Shown one piece after another: positions 3,592 to 45,007 of a DNA stretch of 64,000 nucleotides. Within the stretch, counting starts at the first letter, position 1; every line of letters starts with the position of its first letter. Origin of the DNA: Candidatus Kerfeldbacteria bacterium (GTDB lineage: Bacteria > Patescibacteriota > Patescibacteriia > UBA10025 > JAHIVO01). Made by a program: the position numbers and the translations under genes. The notes beneath the pieces were generated by a model that was not told where the DNA came from, made no database searches, and worked only from the letters and a program-made list of their open reading frames with translations. The stretch lies in the NCBI GenBank assembly GCA_047946875.1, contig CP181398.1, positions 841,041 through 905,040 on the forward strand, in the 5' to 3' direction.

Positions 3592-4083
3592 TTAAAGCTT
3601 CATATACACAGACGAGACACCATCCTTTAATGCATAAATTGTAAACTTGCCAACTTTAGTTCCTGGCATACCAGGTGAACCGGCGGGCATATCAGGCAAT
3701 GCAATCCCGTCAATATCAGGTTTTTCAGTTAACATCTTATTGATTGCTTCCATAGGTACATGCCCCTCAACAATATAATCACCATAAATTGAAGTATGAC
3801 AACTCTCCATATCTGCAGGAATATTATATTTGTCTTTAATGGAAGACATATTACTTTCTTTAATTATATCTACCTCATATCCTGCATCTTCTACATAAGA
3901 AGCATGTTTTACACAACAACCACAAGTTGGTGATTTATACATCGTTACCTGATCAGATTCTCCATCACTGCTAATATTTATTTTCGTATTCGTTGATTTT
4001 TGTTCAGATGGTAGTACAAAATACACCCCACCCGCTAACACAATAATGCCTACTATTATAATTATCTTATTTCTTAAAATCAT
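3592..4083 (-). CDS. DUF411 (CopG-like) periplasmic metal-binding protein
   Basis: Signal/TM then YKSPTCGCCVKH, matching the conserved CGCC motif of the DUF411 family found in copper-resistance loci. Confidence 0.6.
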   Translation of the reverse strand: MILRNKIIIIVGIIVLAGGVYFVLPSEQKSTNTKINISSDGESDQVTMYKSPTCGCCVKHASYVEDAGYEVDIIKESNMSSIKDKYNIPADMESCHTSIYGDYIVEGHVPMEAINKMLTEKPDIDGIALPDMPAGSPGMPGTKVGKFTIYALKDGVSSVYMKL

Positions 4084-4095
4084 ATTATTAAATTA

Positions 4096-6252
4096 TTAAT
4101 TATCAATCTTTTTTGTTTTTATCCTCAAACTATTCAATACCACACTAACGCTAGAGAAAGCCATGGCGCCGGCTGCGATCATCGGACTTAATAATCCAAA
4201 AGCGGCTAATGGTATAGCGGCTACATTATAAAAGAACGCCCAAAACAAATTTTGTTTAATTGTATTATAGGTTATTCGTGACAAGGCAATAGCTTCAAGC
4301 ACTTTAGTCGGACTACCTTTTACCAATACAATATTGCCGGACTCAATAGCAATGTCAGTCCCAGTCCCAATAGCTATCCCAAGATCAGCCTGAACTAAAG
4401 CTGGCGCATCATTAATCCCATCACCAACCATGGCCACAATATTACCCTTTTTTTGTAATTCTTTTACCTTGTCTTGTTTGTCCTCCGGTTTCACTCTAGC
4501 CTTCCATTCATCAATACCAAGCTTATCTGCTATTACCTGGGCAGTTTTTTCATTATCTCCAGTTAACATAACGGGCTTAATCCCAAAAGATAATAATTTT
4601 TCAATAACCCCTTTTGATTCTTCTTTAACTTCATCCGCCACACTTATATATCCCATATATTTTCCATCGTAGGCTAATTCCATAACTGTCATTCCTTTTG
4701 ATTCTTCTTTATTTATTTCACCTGCTTCTATAGATGAGATAATAATATTATGCTCAACTAGAAATTCATTATTTCCAAAAAATGCTTTTTTACCATTAAC
4801 TAAGCCAGTAACACCTCGTCCTACCACAGATGAAAAATCTTTTGCCGAATCAACAACAATGTTTTCTTTTTGAGCCTTATTTACAATTGCTTTTGCAAGA
4901 GGGTGTTCGGAATTCTTTTCTAAGGCCAATGCTAACTTCAACACTTCACTAGACGTATAATCAACTACCTCTGGCTCACCTTTTGTAAGAGTCCCCGTCT
5001 TATCAAAAATAATCGTATCAATTTTCTTACCTCTTTCTAATGATTCACCATTTTTTATCAAAATACCACGACTCGCTCCTCTTCCCGTCCCAACCATAAT
5101 AGCTGTAGGCGTTGCCAGTCCTAATGCACAAGGACACGCAATAACTAATACTGCGACTGCGGGAATAATACTTTCTGAGATACTACCGGTAACCAAATAC
5201 CATATAATCGCAGTAACTATTGCTAAGCTAATCACCACTGGTACAAAAACAGCCGCAATACGATCAGCTAATCTCTGGATAGGCGCTTTTGCTCCTTGAG
5301 CTTCCTCCACCATATTAACAATCTGCGCTAATACCGTATTCTGACCGATCTTAACTGCTTCGACTTGTACTGCACCATCAATATTTATTGTTGCTCCATA
5401 AACACTATCCCCAACCTTTTTACCTACTGGCATTGACTCACCAGTTAACATTGATTCATCAATAGAGCTACGTCCAGAAATTATTTTCCCATCAACTGGG
5501 ACCTTCTCTCCTGGTTTTATTATTAACACATCCCCTACAGCTACTTGCTCCACTGGAACATCTGTCTCCTGACCATCTTTTAACAAATGTGCTGTCTTAG
5601 CGCCTAACTGTAATAACTTCTTAATTGCTTCACTTGCACTTCCCTTACTTTTTACTTCGAAATATCGTCCGAGTAATATCAAGGCAGTAATCACCGCACC
5701 AGTCTCAAAATATATTTCTGTTCCATTTTGTGTCATTACCCAGATGCTGTAAATAAATGCAGCCAATGTACCAATTGAAATCAGAGTATCCATATTTGCC
5801 GATACATTTTTAAGTCTATTCCACATACCTTTATGAAACTCAAAACCAATAACAAATATTGCGATTGCGCTCAATATCAATTGCAACCAAATAGACAAAT
5901 CAAAATTAAATATCTCCACTCCTAAATTAATCTTTGCCATAGCCAGGACCATAACTGGGATTGCAATAGCCAAAGATATAATTGCTTTATTTTTAGCTTT
6001 AGACAAGCTTTCTTCAGTCATTAACTGATTCTCTGTCGAGACATTTTTAACTACTCCGTAACCATTTTTCTTAACCACTTCATACAAATCCTCTTTAGAT
6101 AATTTTTTTTCATTATAAGTAATCGTTGCATTATTCAATGCCAAATTAACACTTACTTTATCAACTCCTTCCATTTTATTAAAACTTCTTTCATTCCTTG
6201 CACTACATGATGCACAATGCATACCGGTAATACCAAATTTTACTTTCTTCAT
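4096..6252 (-). CDS. copA: Copper-translocating P1B-type ATPase
   Basis: N-terminal HMA domain ([12 protein letters not shown]). CPC ion-transduction motif ([11 protein letters not shown]). DKTGTLT phosphorylation site. [10 protein letters not shown] hinge. Confidence 0.9.
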
Positions 6253-16929: not shown

Positions 16930-17160
16930 TATCATACATCTACCTTAACATCTTATGTATGAAGGAAACCGGTTAGAATCCGGTGCTGTCGCGCAACTGT
17001 ACTCCATAATTTTTATGGTAAGCCAGGTCGATCATACATAATTATCTTGCATATTTATTTCATAATATGCATTCTCTTCGCGTAAAAAGAGATGGGTAAT
17101 TGTTTATACAATTATGGTCGTCCAAATCCTTGTACTCGAAGTTAAGGATTTTTTTATAAA
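16930..17160 (+). promoter_or_regulatory. Cobalamin (AdoCbl) riboswitch with terminator-type expression platform
   Basis: GGAAACCGGTTAGAATCCGGTGCTGTCGCGCAACTGTA matches the cobalamin riboswitch core. AAGCCAGG B12-box-like segment. Terminator hairpin aatcctt...aaggatt + T7 at 17123-17157, just upstream of the DUF4430 gene. Confidence 0.7.
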
Positions 17161-39001: not shown

Positions 39002-39334
39002 AATTTTTTTTGTTAATTATTTAAAATATCAAATCCCGTTATATCCTAAACAACGAGTTTTACCCTATCGATTACAAGCACTGTCTTACAACCTTTTGAT
39101 ACAGAAAAAATCCAACCTCCTTTAAAACTCAATTTAGTGATCTCGATAAAATTTTCTGATTATATACAAAATTCTTCATAGTTAGGTAATTTAAATATAA
39201 TTACTAACACCAATTTCAGATACTAAATATAAGATAGTAACTCCTTTAATTCTATCTTATTTATACCTATTTTTTCCTTTAAAATCAACAAAAAAAACGA
39301 TTTTTATCGTCTTTCACTGCACATAAGCATCCAG

Positions 39335-39632
39335 CTCCGCGAGTCAGATTCGAACTGACGACCTACCGGTTACACGTAATCCATACGTTTCCGTACGGCA
39401 TGGACTATATCTTTGCCATATTCTCAAAGTGAGAATTTAGACACTCTGGTATCTAGTCTCTACGGCGCTCCCCTCCTTTAATAAAGTTTCGGAGGAGTTC
39501 CCACGGTATTAGCATATTCAAAATTAATTGAACGTAGCCTTCACCGTTATCCCAGAGAGTTCATCCCGACATTTCTGTCGGAAGCTGCGTTTTCGTTCAC
39601 AGCCGGTTGCTCTACCGCTGAGCTATCGCGGA
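39335..39632 (-). tRNA. tRNA-Asn(GUU) interrupted by a 226-nt group I intron in the anticodon loop
   Basis: Exon 1 (39599-39632 rc) UCCGCGAUAGCUCAGCGGUAGAGCAACCGGCUGU. Exon 2 (39335-39372 rc) UAACCGGUAGGUCGUCAGUUCGAAUCUGACUCGCGGAG. Together they give a cloverleaf with a 7-bp acceptor (U1:A72), loop CUGUUAA, G73 discriminator and GUUCGAAUC T-loop. The pattern matches bacterial tRNA-Asn. CCA is not encoded. Confidence 0.75.
39373..39598 (-). mobile_element. Group I self-splicing intron (IC3-like) in the tRNA-Asn anticodon loop
   Basis: Contains the group I R element GUAGAGACUAGA and S element AAGAUAUAGUCC. P1 can form between exon CUGU and the guide GCAG (U.G at the splice site). The intron ends with G. 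It resembles the Azoarcus/cyanobacterial tRNA introns. Confidence 0.75.
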
Positions 39633-39677
39633 ATTGGATGCTTATGTATTTTTAAACTTTTTAATATTTATAAATTA

Positions 39678-39971
39678 CTACTTATTTTTTGCATGAATTT
39701 CTCGATGACAGTTTGCACATAATAAAACGCATTTCTCTAATTCTTGCTTAACTTTTTGCCATCCCCTTGTATAACCCTTACTTGAAATTCCAAAATCTTT
39801 TTTACCACTTGAATGATGAAACTCTAATGCTTCCTTACAAATTTTATATCCACAGATACTACATTTATTACCTTTATGTTTTAGGGCTAATTCTCTTATC
39901 TTTTTTCTTCGCTGTGCTACAGCTTTAATTAAATACTTTGCCCGATCAGCATATTTTCTTTTATCCTTCAT
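39678..39971 (-). CDS. Free-standing HNH endonuclease
   Basis: CSICGYKIC...LEFHHSSGKK...CVLLCANCHREIH HNH/zinc-finger signature. Located immediately 5' of the intron-containing tRNA. Confidence 0.7.
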   Translation of the reverse strand: MKDKRKYADRAKYLIKAVAQRRKKIRELALKHKGNKCSICGYKICKEALEFHHSSGKKDFGISSKGYTRGWQKVKQELEKCVLLCANCHREIHAKNK

Positions 39972-40005
39972 ATATTACAAAATCTAAGTACAATATGCCA
40001 TTAAT

Positions 40006-41295
40006 TTAATAATCCCTTAATTTTTTCATTCCTTGGTGTTCTTCAATCCTTTCCAATGCTTTTGCTTCAATCTGACGAATACGTTCACGTGTTACACCAA
40101 ATTCTTGACCAACTTCTTCTAGAGTATGAGAAACTCCATCTACTAAACCAAAACGCATTTCCAAAATTTTATGTTCACGAGGTGACAACTCTCTAATAAT
40201 TTCTAATACGTGATCTTTTAATAATTGCATTGCAGCGACACGGTCAGGTGTGACAGTTTTCTGATCTTCTATAAAATCTCCTAATACAGAATCTTCATCA
40301 TCACTATCCCCTACAGAGGTTTCAAGAGATACTGTATCTTGTGATATTTTCATAATATGATGAACTTTTTCTACTGTTTCTCCAAGCTCAGCAGCTATCT
40401 CTTCGGCTAGTGGTTCTCTACCCAAATCTTGAATTAATTGTCTAGATACGTGGGTGTATCGATTAATAGTTTCCACCATATGTACTGGAATTCTAATAGT
40501 ACGTGATTGATCAGCCAATGCTCTTGTTATAGCTTGTCGGATCCACCAAGTAGCATATGTAGAAAATTTATAACCTTTTCGATAATCAAATTTTTCTACC
40601 GCTCTAAATAATCCAATATTTCCTTCTTGAATCAAATCTAATAAAGATAAGGAGCGCCCAGTAAATTTCTTGGCTATTGATACAACCAACCTAAGATTTG
40701 CCTCTACCAATTTTCTCTGTGCTTCGATCTCTCCTTTTTCTTTCAATTTTGCGAGTTTAACTTCTTCTTCACGTCGTAATAATGGTACCTTACCAATCTC
40801 TCTCAAATACATCTGAATTGAATCATTAGAAATATCAGACATATCCAAACGTTGCTTGTCCGATGCCTTTTTTTTCTTTCCTTTAACCTCAGTTTCGATT
40901 AAATCTTCTGGCCTACTTAAAACAGTGCCAGTAATTTCAACTACCTGAATTCCAGAACTTTCTAAATCATCCAAAAAATCTTCATATTCTAGTATATATT
41001 CTTCTAGTTCTGGGAAGCTATATAATATTTCTGTTTCTGTAATAAACCCTCTTGATCTTGCTTTTTCATAAAGCTTTTCAACTTTAGACATATCCAGCTC
41101 AATCTTTTTTGCCTTTTTAGCTGAAATTTTTGGATCTTTAGATTTAGATGTTTTTTTAACGGCTTTTTTTGCAGCCGTCTTTTTGTTTACAGGTTTAGAT
41201 GTTTTTTTAACGGCTTTTTTTGCAGCCGTCTTTTTGTTTACAGGTTTAGATGTTTTTTTGGTTTTTGTAATCAAACTAGCTTTTGTTTTAGGCAT
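40006..41295 (-). CDS. rpoD: RNA polymerase sigma-70 factor RpoD, with Lys-rich repeated N-terminal extension
   Basis: Regions 2-4 present ([23 protein letters not shown], region 4 HTH). The N-terminus contains 2 x [17 protein letters not shown]. Confidence 0.9.
41143..41244 (-). repeat. Tandem 51-bp direct repeat x2 inside the rpoD 5' coding region
   Basis: tttagatgtttttttaacggctttttttgcagccgtctttttgtttacagg at 41143-41193 and 41194-41244. Confidence 0.75.
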
Positions 41296-41306: not shown

Positions 41307-43106
41307 TTATTCTAAATGTTTAAGCTCATTTGCTAATTCAGAAAATTTTTGACTATATTCATTAGCGGCCACCGAATCACCGGATTGTTCAAATTTTTGT
41401 AATTTTAACTCAATCTCCTTTAATTCTAGATGAATTAAATTCTTTTTTAAGTCTTTAGTCCCAGTTTTAAGCTCTTTTTGAATTTCTTCATCTTCCATTT
41501 CACCAAAAAGATTTGAGGCTTTTAAAGACAAAATATTAGCATAAGTTGCTAATTTTTGATCGTTAGCTAAATTTACTTTTATAAATTCATTATAGTCAAA
41601 GTTGTGCTTTTCAGTATAGTAAATTATCATACTTTTGTAAAGTTTTTTCAATTGTTCATTTGGCATAAATTCAGGTAATAACACGTCAACATATTCTTCT
41701 AATAACTCTGGCTTATTTATTATCATGCCAATTACATTCTCTGCCAAGTTTATAAAACGATTCTTTATTTCTGGCTTTGCTATTTCAGGATCAGATTTTT
41801 GTTTTTTTTGACTAGCCGTATCTTTATTTAATATTTGTAATAATTTATCTCTTAAAATATTCTCCTCTACATTCAAAATCCCTGCCAACTTTTGTAAGTA
41901 ATGAGTTTGCTCAATTGGGTCAACTAATTTTGAAATGACAGGCAATAATACTTTTGCAATTTCTTTTTTATCTTCAACTTTTGTTTCATCATATTTATTC
42001 AATGTTGAATCGAAATAATATTCCATAACAGATTGCGCATTTTCAATAGCTCTGGTCCAAGCTGATACATCTTTTTTTATTAAATCGTCAGGATCTTTTG
42101 CGTCAGGCAACTGAATAACTTTTGTATTCATATCTTCTTGCCAGGCCACTTCTATTCCACGTTTTGCAGCAGCATCGCCAGCTACATCTTGATCAAAAGC
42201 AAAAGCAATATTATTTGAAAATCTTTTTAGCATTTTTACTTGCTCAGAAGTTAAAGCTGTGCCAGAAGACGCAACTACATTAATAACTCCAGCCTGATGT
42301 GAAGATAAGCAATCCATATATCCTTCTACTACCACAGCTACTTTTTTTTGCTTTATCTCTTGTCTAGCTTTATCTAAACCAAATACTACATAACTCTTAT
42401 TATATACCAACGTTTGTGGAGAATTAATATATTTTGCAATTTTTTCTTCCTTGCCTAACCATCGTCCACCAAAACCAATTATATTTCCTTGTGTATCGCT
42501 GATTGGAAACATTAAACGATTTCTAAATCTATCATTATATCCGACTCCTCTATCTTTTTTTATAGTTAGGCCAGCCTGAAAAATATCATCCTCTTTATAA
42601 CCTTTTTTTACCAAGTAAGTATTTAATGTATCCCATGCATCCGGAGAATAACCTAATTTCCATTCTTCTATAGTCTCGTCTTTTACCTGACGATCAATTA
42701 AATATTTTTTGACAAATTCTGCTTTAGGATGGTCAACTAAAATTTTATGATAAAAATTTGCAGCTTCCTTACAAACATCCATTAATCTAGTTTTTTGATT
42801 ATTTACTGCTGGATCTTGATATTGCAATTCTACTCCTGCTTTTTTTGCCAACATACGCAATGCTTCAGGAAATTCCATGCCTTCCATCTTTTGAACAAAA
42901 CCATATATATCTCCTCCTTCACCACAGCCAAAACAATGCCATATTTGTTTATCTCTAGATATCATAAAAGACGGCGTCTTTTCATTATGAAAAGGACAAT
43001 TTGCTTTAAAATTATTTGTACCTGCTGGCTTTACTTGAATGTACTCTTGAATCAAGTCAACCACATCAATTTTACTTTTTATTTCTTCAATATTATCTTG
43101 TGCCAT
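41307..43106 (-). CDS. dnaG: DNA primase DnaG
   Basis: Zinc ribbon [11 protein letters not shown]...[12 protein letters not shown] polymerase domain, Toprim EGYMD. Confidence 0.9.
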
Positions 43107-43136: not shown

Positions 43137-43228
43137 TGGCGGAGAGAGAGGGATTCGAACCCTCGAAGGAATTTGACTCCCTTACTTGCTTTCCAAGCAA
43201 GCGCACTAGACCACTATGCGACCTCTCC
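43137..43228 (-). tRNA. tRNA-Ser(GGA)
   Basis: rc GGAGAGGTCGCATAGTGGTCTAGTGCGCTTGCTTGGAAAGCAAGTAAGGGAGTCAAATTCCTTCGAGGGTTCGAATCCCTCTCTCTCCGCCA. Anticodon loop UUGGAAA. Long variable arm. Encoded CCA. Confidence 0.85.
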
Positions 43229-43233
43229 AAGTC

Positions 43234-43485
43234 TTATTTAATATCAGATCGCAACATTTCTTTAAATTGAATTCCACCTTTAAAGCTTTTTATCATTAAT
43301 TCTCTCAAGTAAGCCTCCGATTTTGACTTAAACATTTCTTTATAAATTATTATCCATGGAATACCAGACTTTGTTGATCTTACAGAGCCACTATTATGTT
43401 TTTTAAGTCGTGCAATTAAATTTTTAGTATGTCCAATATAATGCTTTCTATTTTTTTCACTCTGTAAAACATAAGTAACAAACAT
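43234..43485 (-). CDS. Small stand-alone GIY-YIG nuclease (UPF0213/YhbQ-like)
   Basis: FVTYVLQSEKNRKHYIGHTKNLIARLKKHN matches the GIY-YIG motif in an 83-aa protein. Confidence 0.7.
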   Translation of the reverse strand: MFVTYVLQSEKNRKHYIGHTKNLIARLKKHNSGSVRSTKSGIPWIIIYKEMFKSKSEAYLRELMIKSFKGGIQFKEMLRSDIK

Positions 43486-43566: not shown

Positions 43567-43841
43567 ATTTAACTACTATAAAATATCTTATTTCATCATA
43601 ATCACTAGCATAAGGACATTTATATTATGCGCCTGCCCACCGAAGCATAGCAAAGGTGGGACCTCTCCTTATTTTAACTAAAAATAGCCAAAAATGCTAC
43701 TAATTCAGTATACCATAGCATTTTTATTCACAAAAGAAAAGGTCATAATAAGCCAATTTTGCATAATTTTATAAATATACTTGACTTATATTAATAATTT
43801 GCTAAGATGGGTGCTGGAACCTAGTATTAGGAGGGAGTAAT

Positions 43842-44102
43842 ATGATTCCATTTGACACTTTAGCTGTCATTGGGTTTATTATTCAGCCCTTTCTAATCTC
43901 TAGCCATCCGATCCTGTTGGAGGACGAAAATCGTCTCTCGGACAGGCAACTGGCAAGTGCTATTCTCTGCGGAGATTTACGATACGGTCCCGAGTGGACC
44001 AATATCGAGCGCTGCCAAGTATTTTTCCCAAATGTTGAAGAAGCCCATGATGCAATTGGTCTGCTTGGGAATCGTGATTGGCTAGAGGGTAGGACCTCAT
44101 AG
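43842..44102 (+). CDS. Module A of a tandem duplicated element: 86-codon ORF (or structured RNA) with its own promoter, strong SD and terminator
   Basis: TTGACT-N17-TAAGAT promoter (43786-43815), AGGAGG SD 7 nt before ATG, ~50% GC body, terminator AGGGCGG...CCGCCCT + U-run at ~44167-44212. Near-identical to module B except a 45-nt patch. No family recognised. Confidence 0.35.
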   Translation: MIPFDTLAVIGFIIQPFLISSHPILLEDENRLSDRQLASAILCGDLRYGPEWTNIERCQVFFPNVEEAHDAIGLLGNRDWLEGRTS

Positions 44103-44279
44103 GGTTTGGAGTTGTTGTAACTCCATTGTTGCTCTTGAGGAGAGGGTTGGTTCTACCCAACAAAAAAACTAGGGCGGCTCCTTTTTAGAAACCGCCCTAC
44201 TTTATATTGTTTTTGAAAATATTCAGGACAGCTAAAATTAATTAATAAAAAACCCATCTTCACATTTGTAATGACGGGT

Positions 44280-44465: not shown

Positions 44466-44614
44466 TTTTTACTCCTTTATTTTGAAAGTGACAATTTATT
44501 ATTACTTATTTTATGCCCAATGTCAAGTATATTTATAATATTATTCAAAACTCTTGACATATACCATTAACCTGCTAAGATGGGTGCTGGAACCTAGTAT
44601 TAGGAGGGAGTAAT

Positions 44615-44875
44615 ATGATTCCATTTGACACTTTAGCTGTCATTGGGTTTATTATTCAGCCCTTTCTAATCTCTAGCCATCCGATCCTGTTGGAGGACGA
44701 AAATCGTCTCTCGAGCAGGCAACTGGCAAGTGCTATTCTCTTAGGAGATTTACGATACGGTCCCGAGTGGACCAATATCGAGCGCTGCCAAGTATTTTTC
44801 CCAAATGTTAAAGCAACATCAGGCATTTGTTATCGGCCCCGGGAACGTGAATGGCTAGAGGGTAGGACCTCATAG
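44615..44875 (+). CDS. Module B of the tandem duplicated element (paralog of 43842..44102)
   Basis: Identical promoter (TTGACA-N17-TAAGAT), SD and first ~190 nt. Internal 45-nt segment replaced. Conserved 3' region and terminator (~44940-44985). Confidence 0.35.
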   Translation: MIPFDTLAVIGFIIQPFLISSHPILLEDENRLSSRQLASAILLGDLRYGPEWTNIERCQVFFPNVKATSGICYRPREREWLEGRTS

Positions 44876-45007
44876 GGTTTGGAGTTGTTATAACTCCATT
44901 GTTGCTCTTGAGGAGAGGGTTGGTTCTACCCAACAAAAAAATTAGGGCGGCTCCTTTTTAGAAACCGCCCTACTTTATATTGTCTTAAATTGTTTAATTC
45001 TCCATAA

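Follow-up and report, generated by a model that had tools for sequence, protein, structure and literature searches.

Collaborative homing has been described in cyanophage S-PM2, where the endonuclease F-CphI is paired with a group I intron in psbA (Zeng, Bonocora and Shub 2009, summarized in PMC3984707 and PMC6083498). In phage T4, the free-standing HNH gene mobE promotes the mobility of a neighboring intron (I-TevIII; PMC2790892), and the free-standing endonuclease SegB, encoded in the phage tRNA cluster, has its preferred site in tRNA-Asn and carries neighboring tRNA genes along (PMC2330249). In bacteria, the PD-(D/E)XK nuclease I-Ssp6803I belongs to a cyanobacterial tRNA-fMet group I intron (Bonocora and Shub 2001, cited in PMC3984707). 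The subject of this article is a free-standing gene for an HNH endonuclease and its neighbor, a tRNA-Asn(GUU) gene interrupted by a group I intron that has no open reading frame (ORF). Both lie in 64,000 nucleotides (nt) of DNA from a Candidatus Kerfeldbacteria bacterium (GenBank contig CP181398.1, positions 841,041 to 905,040), referred to below as the window. An earlier note on this DNA had proposed a partnership between the gene and the intron. The link holds and is closer than supposed: the HNH family is the tRNA-Asn intron's own ORF in 132 of the 148 loci with readable context. Sequence comparison makes it likely that the window gene encodes a functional, tRNA-Asn-specific homing endonuclease that works in trans with the neighboring intron.

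How does this locus compare with the systems described previously? First, as for F-CphI, the target would be the intron insertion site, the intron would protect the donor from the predicted cleavage, and the two are inherited together. In contrast, F-CphI, an Endo VII-type enzyme associated with a protein-coding gene of a phage, is believed to have reached its site by independent convergence, whereas the window pairs an HNH enzyme with a cellular tRNA gene, and its family is normally encoded by the same intron; hence, the window pair is probably a split composite element. Second, mobE is a gene distinct from the nrdB intron ORF, and the intron endonuclease is defunct, whereas the window intron lacks any ORF and the neighboring gene is the intron family's own ORF. 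Third, I-Ssp6803I is likewise aimed at a tRNA anticodon region, but the window family consists of HNH proteins of ~100 amino acids (aa) that are tied to tRNA-Asn(GUU) in Patescibacteria, Omnitrophota, Elusimicrobia, Nitrospira, Acidobacteria and others. Fourth, SegB is a GIY-YIG enzyme that recognizes the T-arm with no intron involved, making it a closer analogue for the phage HNH relatives and for a second window ORF, of the GIY-YIG type, beside a tRNA-Ser gene. Fifth, Bonocora and Shub are said to have described in 2009 two homologous HNH enzymes with the same site, the intron-encoded I-TslI of phage PhiI and the free-standing T3 gene 5.3 product. In that case, as here, homologous HNH enzymes are found both within an intron and free-standing beside an intron-less target. 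That case is a single pair in the DNA polymerase genes of T7-like phages, whereas the window family spans hundreds of loci in many bacterial phyla and in phages, and occurs in all three states: free beside an intron-less target (phages and loci L033 and L122), free beside an ORF-less intron (the window and ~10% of cellular loci), and within the intron (the majority).

The locus

The layout is that of a collaborative (trans) homing pair, with a free-standing endonuclease gene beside a gene that carries an ORF-less intron, in line with the definition used for F-CphI/psbA and I-TslI/T3 gene 5.3 (PMC3984707 and PMC6083498). Listed in the direction of transcription, the features are as follows.

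41307..43106, minus strand: dnaG ORF, conserved upstream synteny
40006..41295, minus strand: rpoD ORF, conserved upstream synteny
39972..40005, minus strand: 34-nt spacer from the rpoD stop codon to the HNH ATG
39678..39971, minus strand: free-standing HNH endonuclease ORF, 97 aa, ATG to TAG, single HNH module
39635..39647, minus strand: leader strand ACATAAGCATCCA, perfectly complementary to the trailer
39599..39632, minus strand: 5' exon of tRNA-Asn(GUU), 34 nt, TCCGCGATAGCTCAGCGGTAGAGCAACCGGCTGT, ending in ...CUGU after anticodon nucleotide 35
39373..39598, minus strand: ORF-less group I intron, 226 nt, with a compact P1 hairpin, a short L1 loop, AACGAAAA, and a final G
39335..39372, minus strand: 3' exon of tRNA-Asn(GUU), 38 nt, UAACCGG...CGCGGAG
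39321..39333, minus strand: trailer strand TGGATGCTTATGT, which pairs with the leader

The HNH ORF had been described as ending 45 base pairs (bp) from the tRNA-Asn gene, and this figure is exact: the last base of the stop codon is 39678 and the tRNA begins at 39632 (its 5' end), which leaves 45 nt between them. When joined, the exons form a 72-nt tRNA-Asn(gtt) with a cloverleaf and a GUU anticodon, according to ARAGORN. The acceptor stem (UCCGCGA...UCGCGGA) is identical in the window and in the intron-less tRNA-Asn genes of close relatives. The position of the intron within the GUU anticodon, between nucleotides 35 and 36, follows from P1, in which GCUGU/G (the slash marks the splice site) pairs with CGCAGC such that the conserved U.G pair comes after ...CUGU. 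The Rfam group I intron model RF00028 covers the whole insert (47.0 bits; E = 7e-11 for the region) and scores 49.7 bits in L081, 52.4 bits in L001 and 61–96 bits in other relatives. The ORF-less introns of 14 loci in which the HNH gene is outside the intron share a common structure of 68 pairs, with compensatory changes in 47 of them, and all 14 keep the U.G pair at the 5' splice site. Given this shared structure, its compensatory changes and the invariant U.G pair, the window intron looks intact.

Both the split tRNA and the intron are missed by ARAGORN with default settings and by Rfam at its gathering threshold. ARAGORN in intron mode finds the window gene and mislabels it as Thr(tgt). The Thr, Tyr, Leu and Pro isotypes that ARAGORN assigns to split genes of this family are artefacts of intron placement; all have the exons UCC...CUGU and UAAC...GGAG.

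A 13-bp helix formed by the leader and trailer encloses the tRNA and intron and leaves the HNH ORF outside. Leader/trailer pairs (11–13/513–515) are also present in the consensus intron structure. The leader ACATAAGCATCCA is common to the window, L081, L082 and L085. Other relatives have different but complementary leader/trailer pairs, such as ATCTCCCCAGAAC and GTTCTGGGGAGAT in L247, often followed by a run of T. The helix resembles a conserved stem for processing or termination that surrounds the tRNA where the rpoD operon ends.

The HNH protein

The CxxC...HH...CxxCH motif noticed in this 97-aa ORF is real. Its residues in the window protein are C37xxC40, H52H53 and C85-A-N-C88-H89, and in an alignment of 20 sequences C37, C40, C85, C88, H52, H53, N87 and H89 are all invariant. 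PHROG HNH families match the protein at 1e-24. The AlphaFold model (predicted local distance difference test score, pLDDT, 83.7) has a helix at residues 5–32, strands at 49–53 and 81–85, and helices at 71–78 and 86–96. The top Foldseek neighbors in the PDB are all HNH domains (Cas9, Cap5, Endo VII and Gme), with probabilities of up to 0.97. It is because of the PHROG families, the invariant motif, the model and its structural neighbors, and not because of Pfam, that the protein is assigned to the HNH (His-Me finger) group; in the predicted structure, it has the beta-beta-alpha metal fold, the catalytic His, a metal-binding Asn or His and two CxxC pairs of zinc ligands. A precomputed PF01844 match is present on two homologs, and a sequence search of the PDB gave weak matches only (McrA and the nuclease domain of a group II intron maturase). 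A terminase-associated or restriction-type HNH protein was considered and ruled out, since every context is a tRNA-Asn gene. The further claim that the protein has no other domain stands for known domains and has to be qualified by the long basic helix at its N-terminus (residues 5–32).

Many relatives of 200–420 aa, which are among the highest-scoring, contain two complete tandem HNH modules (for example, P0249–P0255) and look like single-chain pseudo-dimers. The relationship between tandem and single modules can be likened to that between monomeric and dimeric LAGLIDADG enzymes. Because so many relatives hold two complete modules in one chain, the single-module proteins are suggested to work as homodimers, with one strand cut per active site; the window protein is probably a homodimer of this kind.

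Is the gene maintained and expressed? The ratio of nonsynonymous to synonymous substitution rates (dN/dS) between the window gene and that of L081 is 0.054 (dN 0.072, dS 1.33). The ratio is 0.088 between L082 and L085 and 0.03–0.08 for pairs of intron-encoded HNH genes. These values indicate that the free-standing ORF is under strong purifying selection and is not decaying. A scan for promoters and terminators found nothing useful around the ORF on the minus strand, and rpoD, the ORF and the tRNA follow one another with no intervening promoter, Shine-Dalgarno sequence or terminator; for this reason, the ORF is probably read from the dnaG-rpoD transcript. In 58 of 116 related loci, a TATAAT-like (-10-like) hexamer ends 4–14 nt before the ATG, mostly 6–8 nt, compared with 8 of 116 ORF-internal controls, which suggests a leaderless mRNA from a promoter inside loop L1. 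The window spacer lacks the TATAAT-like element found in this half of the relatives.

The family and tRNA-Asn

At least 549 homologs of the window protein were found, mostly of 97–126 aa and 64–88% identity. An exhaustive profile search of 1.84 billion cluster representatives gave 12,868 proteins at E<=1e-10, of which 309 reach E<=1e-30. Loci were fetched from species-representative genomes (80) and from metagenomes (80), and the classification of loci covers 165. The ORF is inside a tRNA-Asn intron in 132 of these and outside the intron, beside tRNA-Asn, in 16, the window included; the other 17 were left undecided, nearly all with a contig end close to the ORF. Thus, every one of the 148 readable loci has tRNA-Asn in or beside the HNH gene. 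A homing endonuclease gene is expected in or beside a self-splicing intron at a conserved site of an essential gene, and the family fits this expectation, with 132 loci inside the tRNA-Asn group I intron and 16 beside a tRNA-Asn gene. Named hosts include Patescibacteria, Omnitrophota, Elusimicrobia, Nitrospira, Acidobacteria, Planctomycetes, Ignavibacteria and Melainabacteria.

The inside loci are uniform. The HNH ORF and the split tRNA are on the same strand, the median intron length is 551 nt, and every split tRNA has the exons of tRNA-Asn(GUU), UCC...CUGU and UAAC...GGAG, with the same interruption point. Group I introns were confirmed with Rfam in the loci tested (52–96 bits). The ORF starts a median of 69 nt past the tRNA 5' end, in loop L1 between the P1 strands, and in 110 of 112 inside loci the P1 3' strand (...GCAGC...; the internal guide sequence) is part of the ORF, with a median distance of 40 nt to the stop codon. 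Because the ORF reads through this strand, the variable C-terminal tails of the HNH proteins are set by ribozyme sequence. The tails so dictated, TQLP, AAS/AAF (AAS(F)P) and LQLP, represent three different reading frames (for example, L155 2501–2815 and L083 3001–3318).

In the open-access literature, no description was found of a tRNA-Asn group I intron or its HNH protein, although earlier work is possible. Nor is tRNA-Asn mentioned in a 2014 review on the group I introns of bacteria (PMC3984707). This large family of mobile tRNA-Asn introns is thus apparently undescribed.

The family extends to phages: 372 phage records match, with identities reaching 61%, and viral contigs give over 560 matches. 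Of 80 viral loci fetched, 76 have the HNH gene in a tRNA array, where it is free-standing and usually flanked by intron-less tRNA-Asn genes. The nearest flanking tRNA on either side is tRNA-Asn(GUU) in 50 of the 76, within 400 nt in 48; since Asn makes up 10% of the tRNAs in these loci, ~19% would be expected (binomial p ~2e-18, with some loci being near-duplicates). In Bacillus phage Bastille, for example, an annotated HNH endonuclease lies between two tRNA-Asn genes. The family therefore tracks the tRNA-Asn gene with or without the intron, which is the best available sign that its target lies there. The 64-kb window itself contains no uninterrupted tRNA-Asn target sequence.

The earlier note had taken the presence of the HNH gene in relatives without the intron as a reason to reject the link. 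Taken literally, such cases exist (L033, L122 and the phage copies). In each, 5' exon remnants or an adjoining tRNA-Asn gene keep the link. These copies therefore suggest tRNA-Asn as the target of the nuclease both with and without an intron, and the link is not broken.

Filled and empty sites after rpoD

The closest HNH relatives are all located after dnaG-rpoD, and this synteny is common to the window, L081–L084 and L246–L251. L081 (HNH identity 88%) and L001 (77%) have the arrangement of the window, with tRNA-Asn 26–34 nt after the HNH gene and an ORF-less intron of 224–230 nt. L082 (77%) has the same arrangement plus an Exo_endo_phos gene between the HNH and tRNA-Asn genes. In L083 and L084 (77%), the HNH gene is inside the intron of the tRNA-Asn gene that follows rpoD. 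By contrast, the six closest RpoD relatives retrieved (L246–L251; 82–94% identity) have an intron-less tRNA-Asn(GUU) gene 18–27 nt past rpoD and no HNH gene. In L246 (RpoD identity 94%), the intron-less allele contains AACCGGCTGTTAACCGGTAGG, and the tRNA equals the joined exons of the window save for two positions that form one compensated T-stem pair. The next gene after the tRNA in L246 is YgjP-like; the same gene is downstream in the window.

Thus, across 11 genomes, the rpoD locus has either both HNH gene and intron (the window, L081, L082, L001 and L083/L084) or neither (L246–L251), with no mixed state. Comparison of intron-less and intron-plus alleles and of HNH co-occurrence, both suggested earlier as checks, came out in favor of the link: gene and intron are inherited together at this locus, and the pattern of presence and absence is that expected of a mobile element.

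What is the unit of movement? Where RpoD is known, the proteins of the window, L081, L082 and L085 are 80–83% identical, despite their common leader ACATAAGCATCCA, and in the empty-site genomes the leader and trailer covary, as a pair that differs from genome to genome. The pattern points to exchange of the entire segment as a unit, from the HNH gene through the leader and the intron-bearing tRNA to the trailer. Shared descent followed by losses is a possible alternative explanation for the common leader.

Two further kinds of element were seen at these loci. GC-rich structured elements stand beside tRNA-Asn in AT-rich genomes (L251 ~3830–4010, L248 ~3840–4077 and L081 ~2850–2960) and start like tRNA-Asn (CCGCGATAGC...). 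The element in L251 ends in an Asn anticodon arm and acceptor 3' strand (...ACGGCTGTTAACCGGTGGGTTGTC...CTCGCGGAGG), with ~150 nt inserted in the D region. Rfam has no family for the elements of L248, L251 and L081; such an element could be a second, heavily interrupted tRNA-Asn-like gene or a pseudogene. A motif of ~20 nt, GAAGTTGTC(G/A)GGCGACCG, flanks the Exo_endo_phos gene in L082 (3325–3390 and ~4190–4260) and recurs after the tRNA in L249 (~3845–3880). The motif may mark the boundary of a cassette or represent a small repeat element.

Direction of rearrangement

The window and L083 differ in whether the ORF is outside or inside the intron. When the two are aligned, the ribozyme cores are near-identical and the sole difference is the order of two segments: in the window, the ORF precedes the block of leader, 5' exon and P1 5' strand, and in L083 the order is reversed. 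The window spacer between rpoD and the ORF (39972..40005) aligns weakly with the loop L1 sequence upstream of the L083 ORF.

In which direction did the rearrangement go? Several outside loci carry traces of a former position within the intron. L122 and L033 have a recognizable 5' exon upstream of the ORF (in L122, TTCTGGGGTAGCTCAATTGGTAGAGCTGTTCGCTGT followed by GAAG) and an intron-less tRNA-Asn gene just downstream. L164 has a decayed 5' exon upstream of the ORF, and comparison with its inside relative L155 shows an insertion of ~24 nt plus a new 5' exon precisely at the junction of the ORF end with the P1 3' strand. Fossil ribozyme-encoded tails still terminate three outside ORFs (L122, L149 and L157); that of L122, ITQFP, is encoded by ACGCAGTTTCC. 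In a neighbor-joining (NJ) tree, L164 and L122 are nested in a clade with 86% support whose eight other members are all inside loci, and outside loci occur at nine or more places in the tree. Taken together, the exon remnants, fossil tails and nesting of L164 and L122 support repeated transitions of the HNH ORF from inside to outside. In addition, the L081 spacer after rpoD retains a leader and the first 12 nt of a resident tRNA-Asn gene like that of L247. The window pair is thus most likely the result of splitting a formerly composite mobile intron, and not a chance partnership; for the window lineage specifically, indirect evidence makes the same direction, inside to outside, probable.

Some observations count against that direction in the window lineage. 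No 5'-exon remnant is found in the 34 nt upstream of the window ORF, and its tail, AKNK, carries no ribozyme-encoded fossil. NJ trees of the 95-aa protein do not resolve the deep nodes, the phage positions or the window clade (29% bootstrap), so the tree alone gives no direction here. These points lead to the strongest alternative, in which a free-standing HNH gene beside tRNA-Asn is ancestral, the ORF-less intron arrived separately, and the ORF later invaded loop L1, giving L083. Homing in trans would be the same, with its history reversed. A pathway in which a free-standing ORF invades an intron was reportedly proposed by Bonocora and Shub, and by Loizos. The phage relatives, free-standing beside intron-less tRNA-Asn genes, fit this history, as do the missing exon remnant and fossil tail in the window and the position of the inside loci L083 and L084 among outside members of the window clade. 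However, the low bootstrap value applies to that very clade, the ORF occupies the same place in loop L1 in all 132 inside loci, pointing to a single origin of the composite element, and the remnants and fossil tails in L122, L149, L157, L164 and L033 point the opposite way. An ancestral free-standing gene is therefore unlikely, though worth keeping in mind.

Proposed mechanism

How would a split element continue to move? The most likely mechanism is trans (collaborative) homing of a cassette comprising the HNH gene and the intron-bearing tRNA, with the intron protecting the host gene. The outside state would arise through placement of a new 5' exon, or of a second and complete copy of tRNA-Asn, downstream of the ORF; the old 5' exon upstream would then decay. 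HNH protein translated from the dnaG-rpoD read-through transcript would form a homodimer and cut intron-less tRNA-Asn genes at or near the intron insertion site (GU/U). The host tRNA-Asn gene would be immune, its cleavage site being split by the intron. Repair of the cut allele would then copy the donor. With exons of only 34 and 38 bp, recombination arms would have to be provided by the flanking genes, namely rpoD and the genes downstream, and the upstream ORF would be carried across with the intron. With homology coming from flanking genes, an ORF 45 nt upstream should be co-converted almost as reliably as an intronic ORF. Near-equal co-conversion would explain both the recurrence of the outside arrangement at tRNA genes and the maintained selection on it. 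For the window protein, cleavage, target site, dimerization, expression and co-conversion are all predictions from comparative sequence analysis.

Other observations weigh against a functional, mobile pair. The Pfam HNH model (PF01844) scores 20.3 bits against a cut-off of 21.4 and covers residues 75–94 only; Foldseek gives no match in the PDB at E<=1e-3 (best E>=0.057); and the 97-aa protein has no recognizable DNA-binding domain. Neither a promoter nor a Shine-Dalgarno sequence is evident in the 34-nt spacer before the ATG. The RF00028 score of the window intron falls short of the gathering score (50). Divergent genomes yielded no near-identical cassettes of the kind that would demonstrate recent transfer. 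Finally, several outside copies in other phyla are on long branches and may be decaying.

Alternative functions

Could the nuclease serve an end other than homing? One possibility is discrimination between self and non-self, with the nuclease cutting incoming uninterrupted tRNA-Asn genes and the intron giving the host immunity. The background to this proposal is that phage tRNA arrays very often carry tRNA-Asn together with their own copy of the nuclease family beside it. If correct, the pair would be a weapon in phage-host or phage-phage conflict, with the intron as the immunity determinant, and the position of the ORF outside the intron, in the rpoD operon, would be a step towards host expression control. 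We regard this as improbable.

A related proposal is that the HNH gene is retained for another host role without mobility, either a maturase-like function helping splicing in trans or the cutting of foreign intron-less tRNA-Asn. The protein is very small, purifying selection alone is no proof of homing, and endonucleases may gain new functions once all alleles are occupied (PMC3984707). On the other hand, there is no variation in the catalytic His and Asn or in the zinc cysteines, and close relatives differ in whether the element is present, which fits a mobile element that is, or was until recently, active. To our knowledge, no HNH maturase has been described. A host role of this kind thus seems quite improbable. 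That the gene is an inactive remnant, or an unrelated HNH gene adjoining the tRNA by chance, is very improbable: the Pfam score, the lack of expression signals around the ORF and the long branches of some outside copies would fit, but all 148 readable loci are tied to tRNA-Asn, dN/dS is 0.05 with saturated dS, the ORF is intact and its motif is invariant.

Neighboring features

The earlier note had also described the region as a hotspot of selfish endonucleases around tRNA genes. The basis for this was the HNH gene together with a GIY-YIG cassette 3.5 kb away.

43234..43485, minus strand: GIY-YIG ORF, 83 aa, GIY-YIG domain only (Pfam, 4e-14)
43137–43228: tRNA-Ser(GGA); the GIY-YIG ORF ends 5 nt before the tRNA start

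Only eight homologs of this ORF are detectable. All three with readable contexts are 7–87 nt from a tRNA gene (Tyr, Ser(GGA) and Glu), in agreement with the description of a hotspot. By analogy, the ORF may be a SegB-like free-standing nuclease tied to tRNA genes.

Just beyond the GIY-YIG gene, a tandem duplication of ~430 nt occupies 43780–44213 and 44553–44986 (spacing 773 nt, 96% identity). Rfam found no family above threshold in this repeat (43.8–45.0 kb), the weak L20-leader-like hits scoring 26–27 bits against a gathering score of 58.7, and the repeated 86-aa ORFs in it are probably spurious. Elsewhere in the window, an AdoCbl (cobalamin) riboswitch is found at 16937–17073 on the plus strand, where RF01482 scores 61 bits (gathering score, 50).

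Implications

What are the implications of these findings? First, few bacterial tRNA genes are known to contain group I introns, and tRNA-Asn(GUU) now joins them. Second, there is a consequence for annotation: standard tools miss the split gene, such that these genomes would appear to have no tRNA-Asn. Third, at 97 aa, the window protein would rank among the smallest homing endonucleases. Fourth, the formation and decay of mobile group I introns have long been debated on the basis of a few phage cases (I-TslI/T3 gene 5.3, F-CphI/psbA and mobE/I-TevIII). The HNH family offers one nuclease and one target, the tRNA-Asn anticodon loop, in three states across hundreds of natural loci. With empty sites available in close relatives, the steps of the pathway and their direction can be tested by comparison, by cleavage assays and by co-conversion assays.

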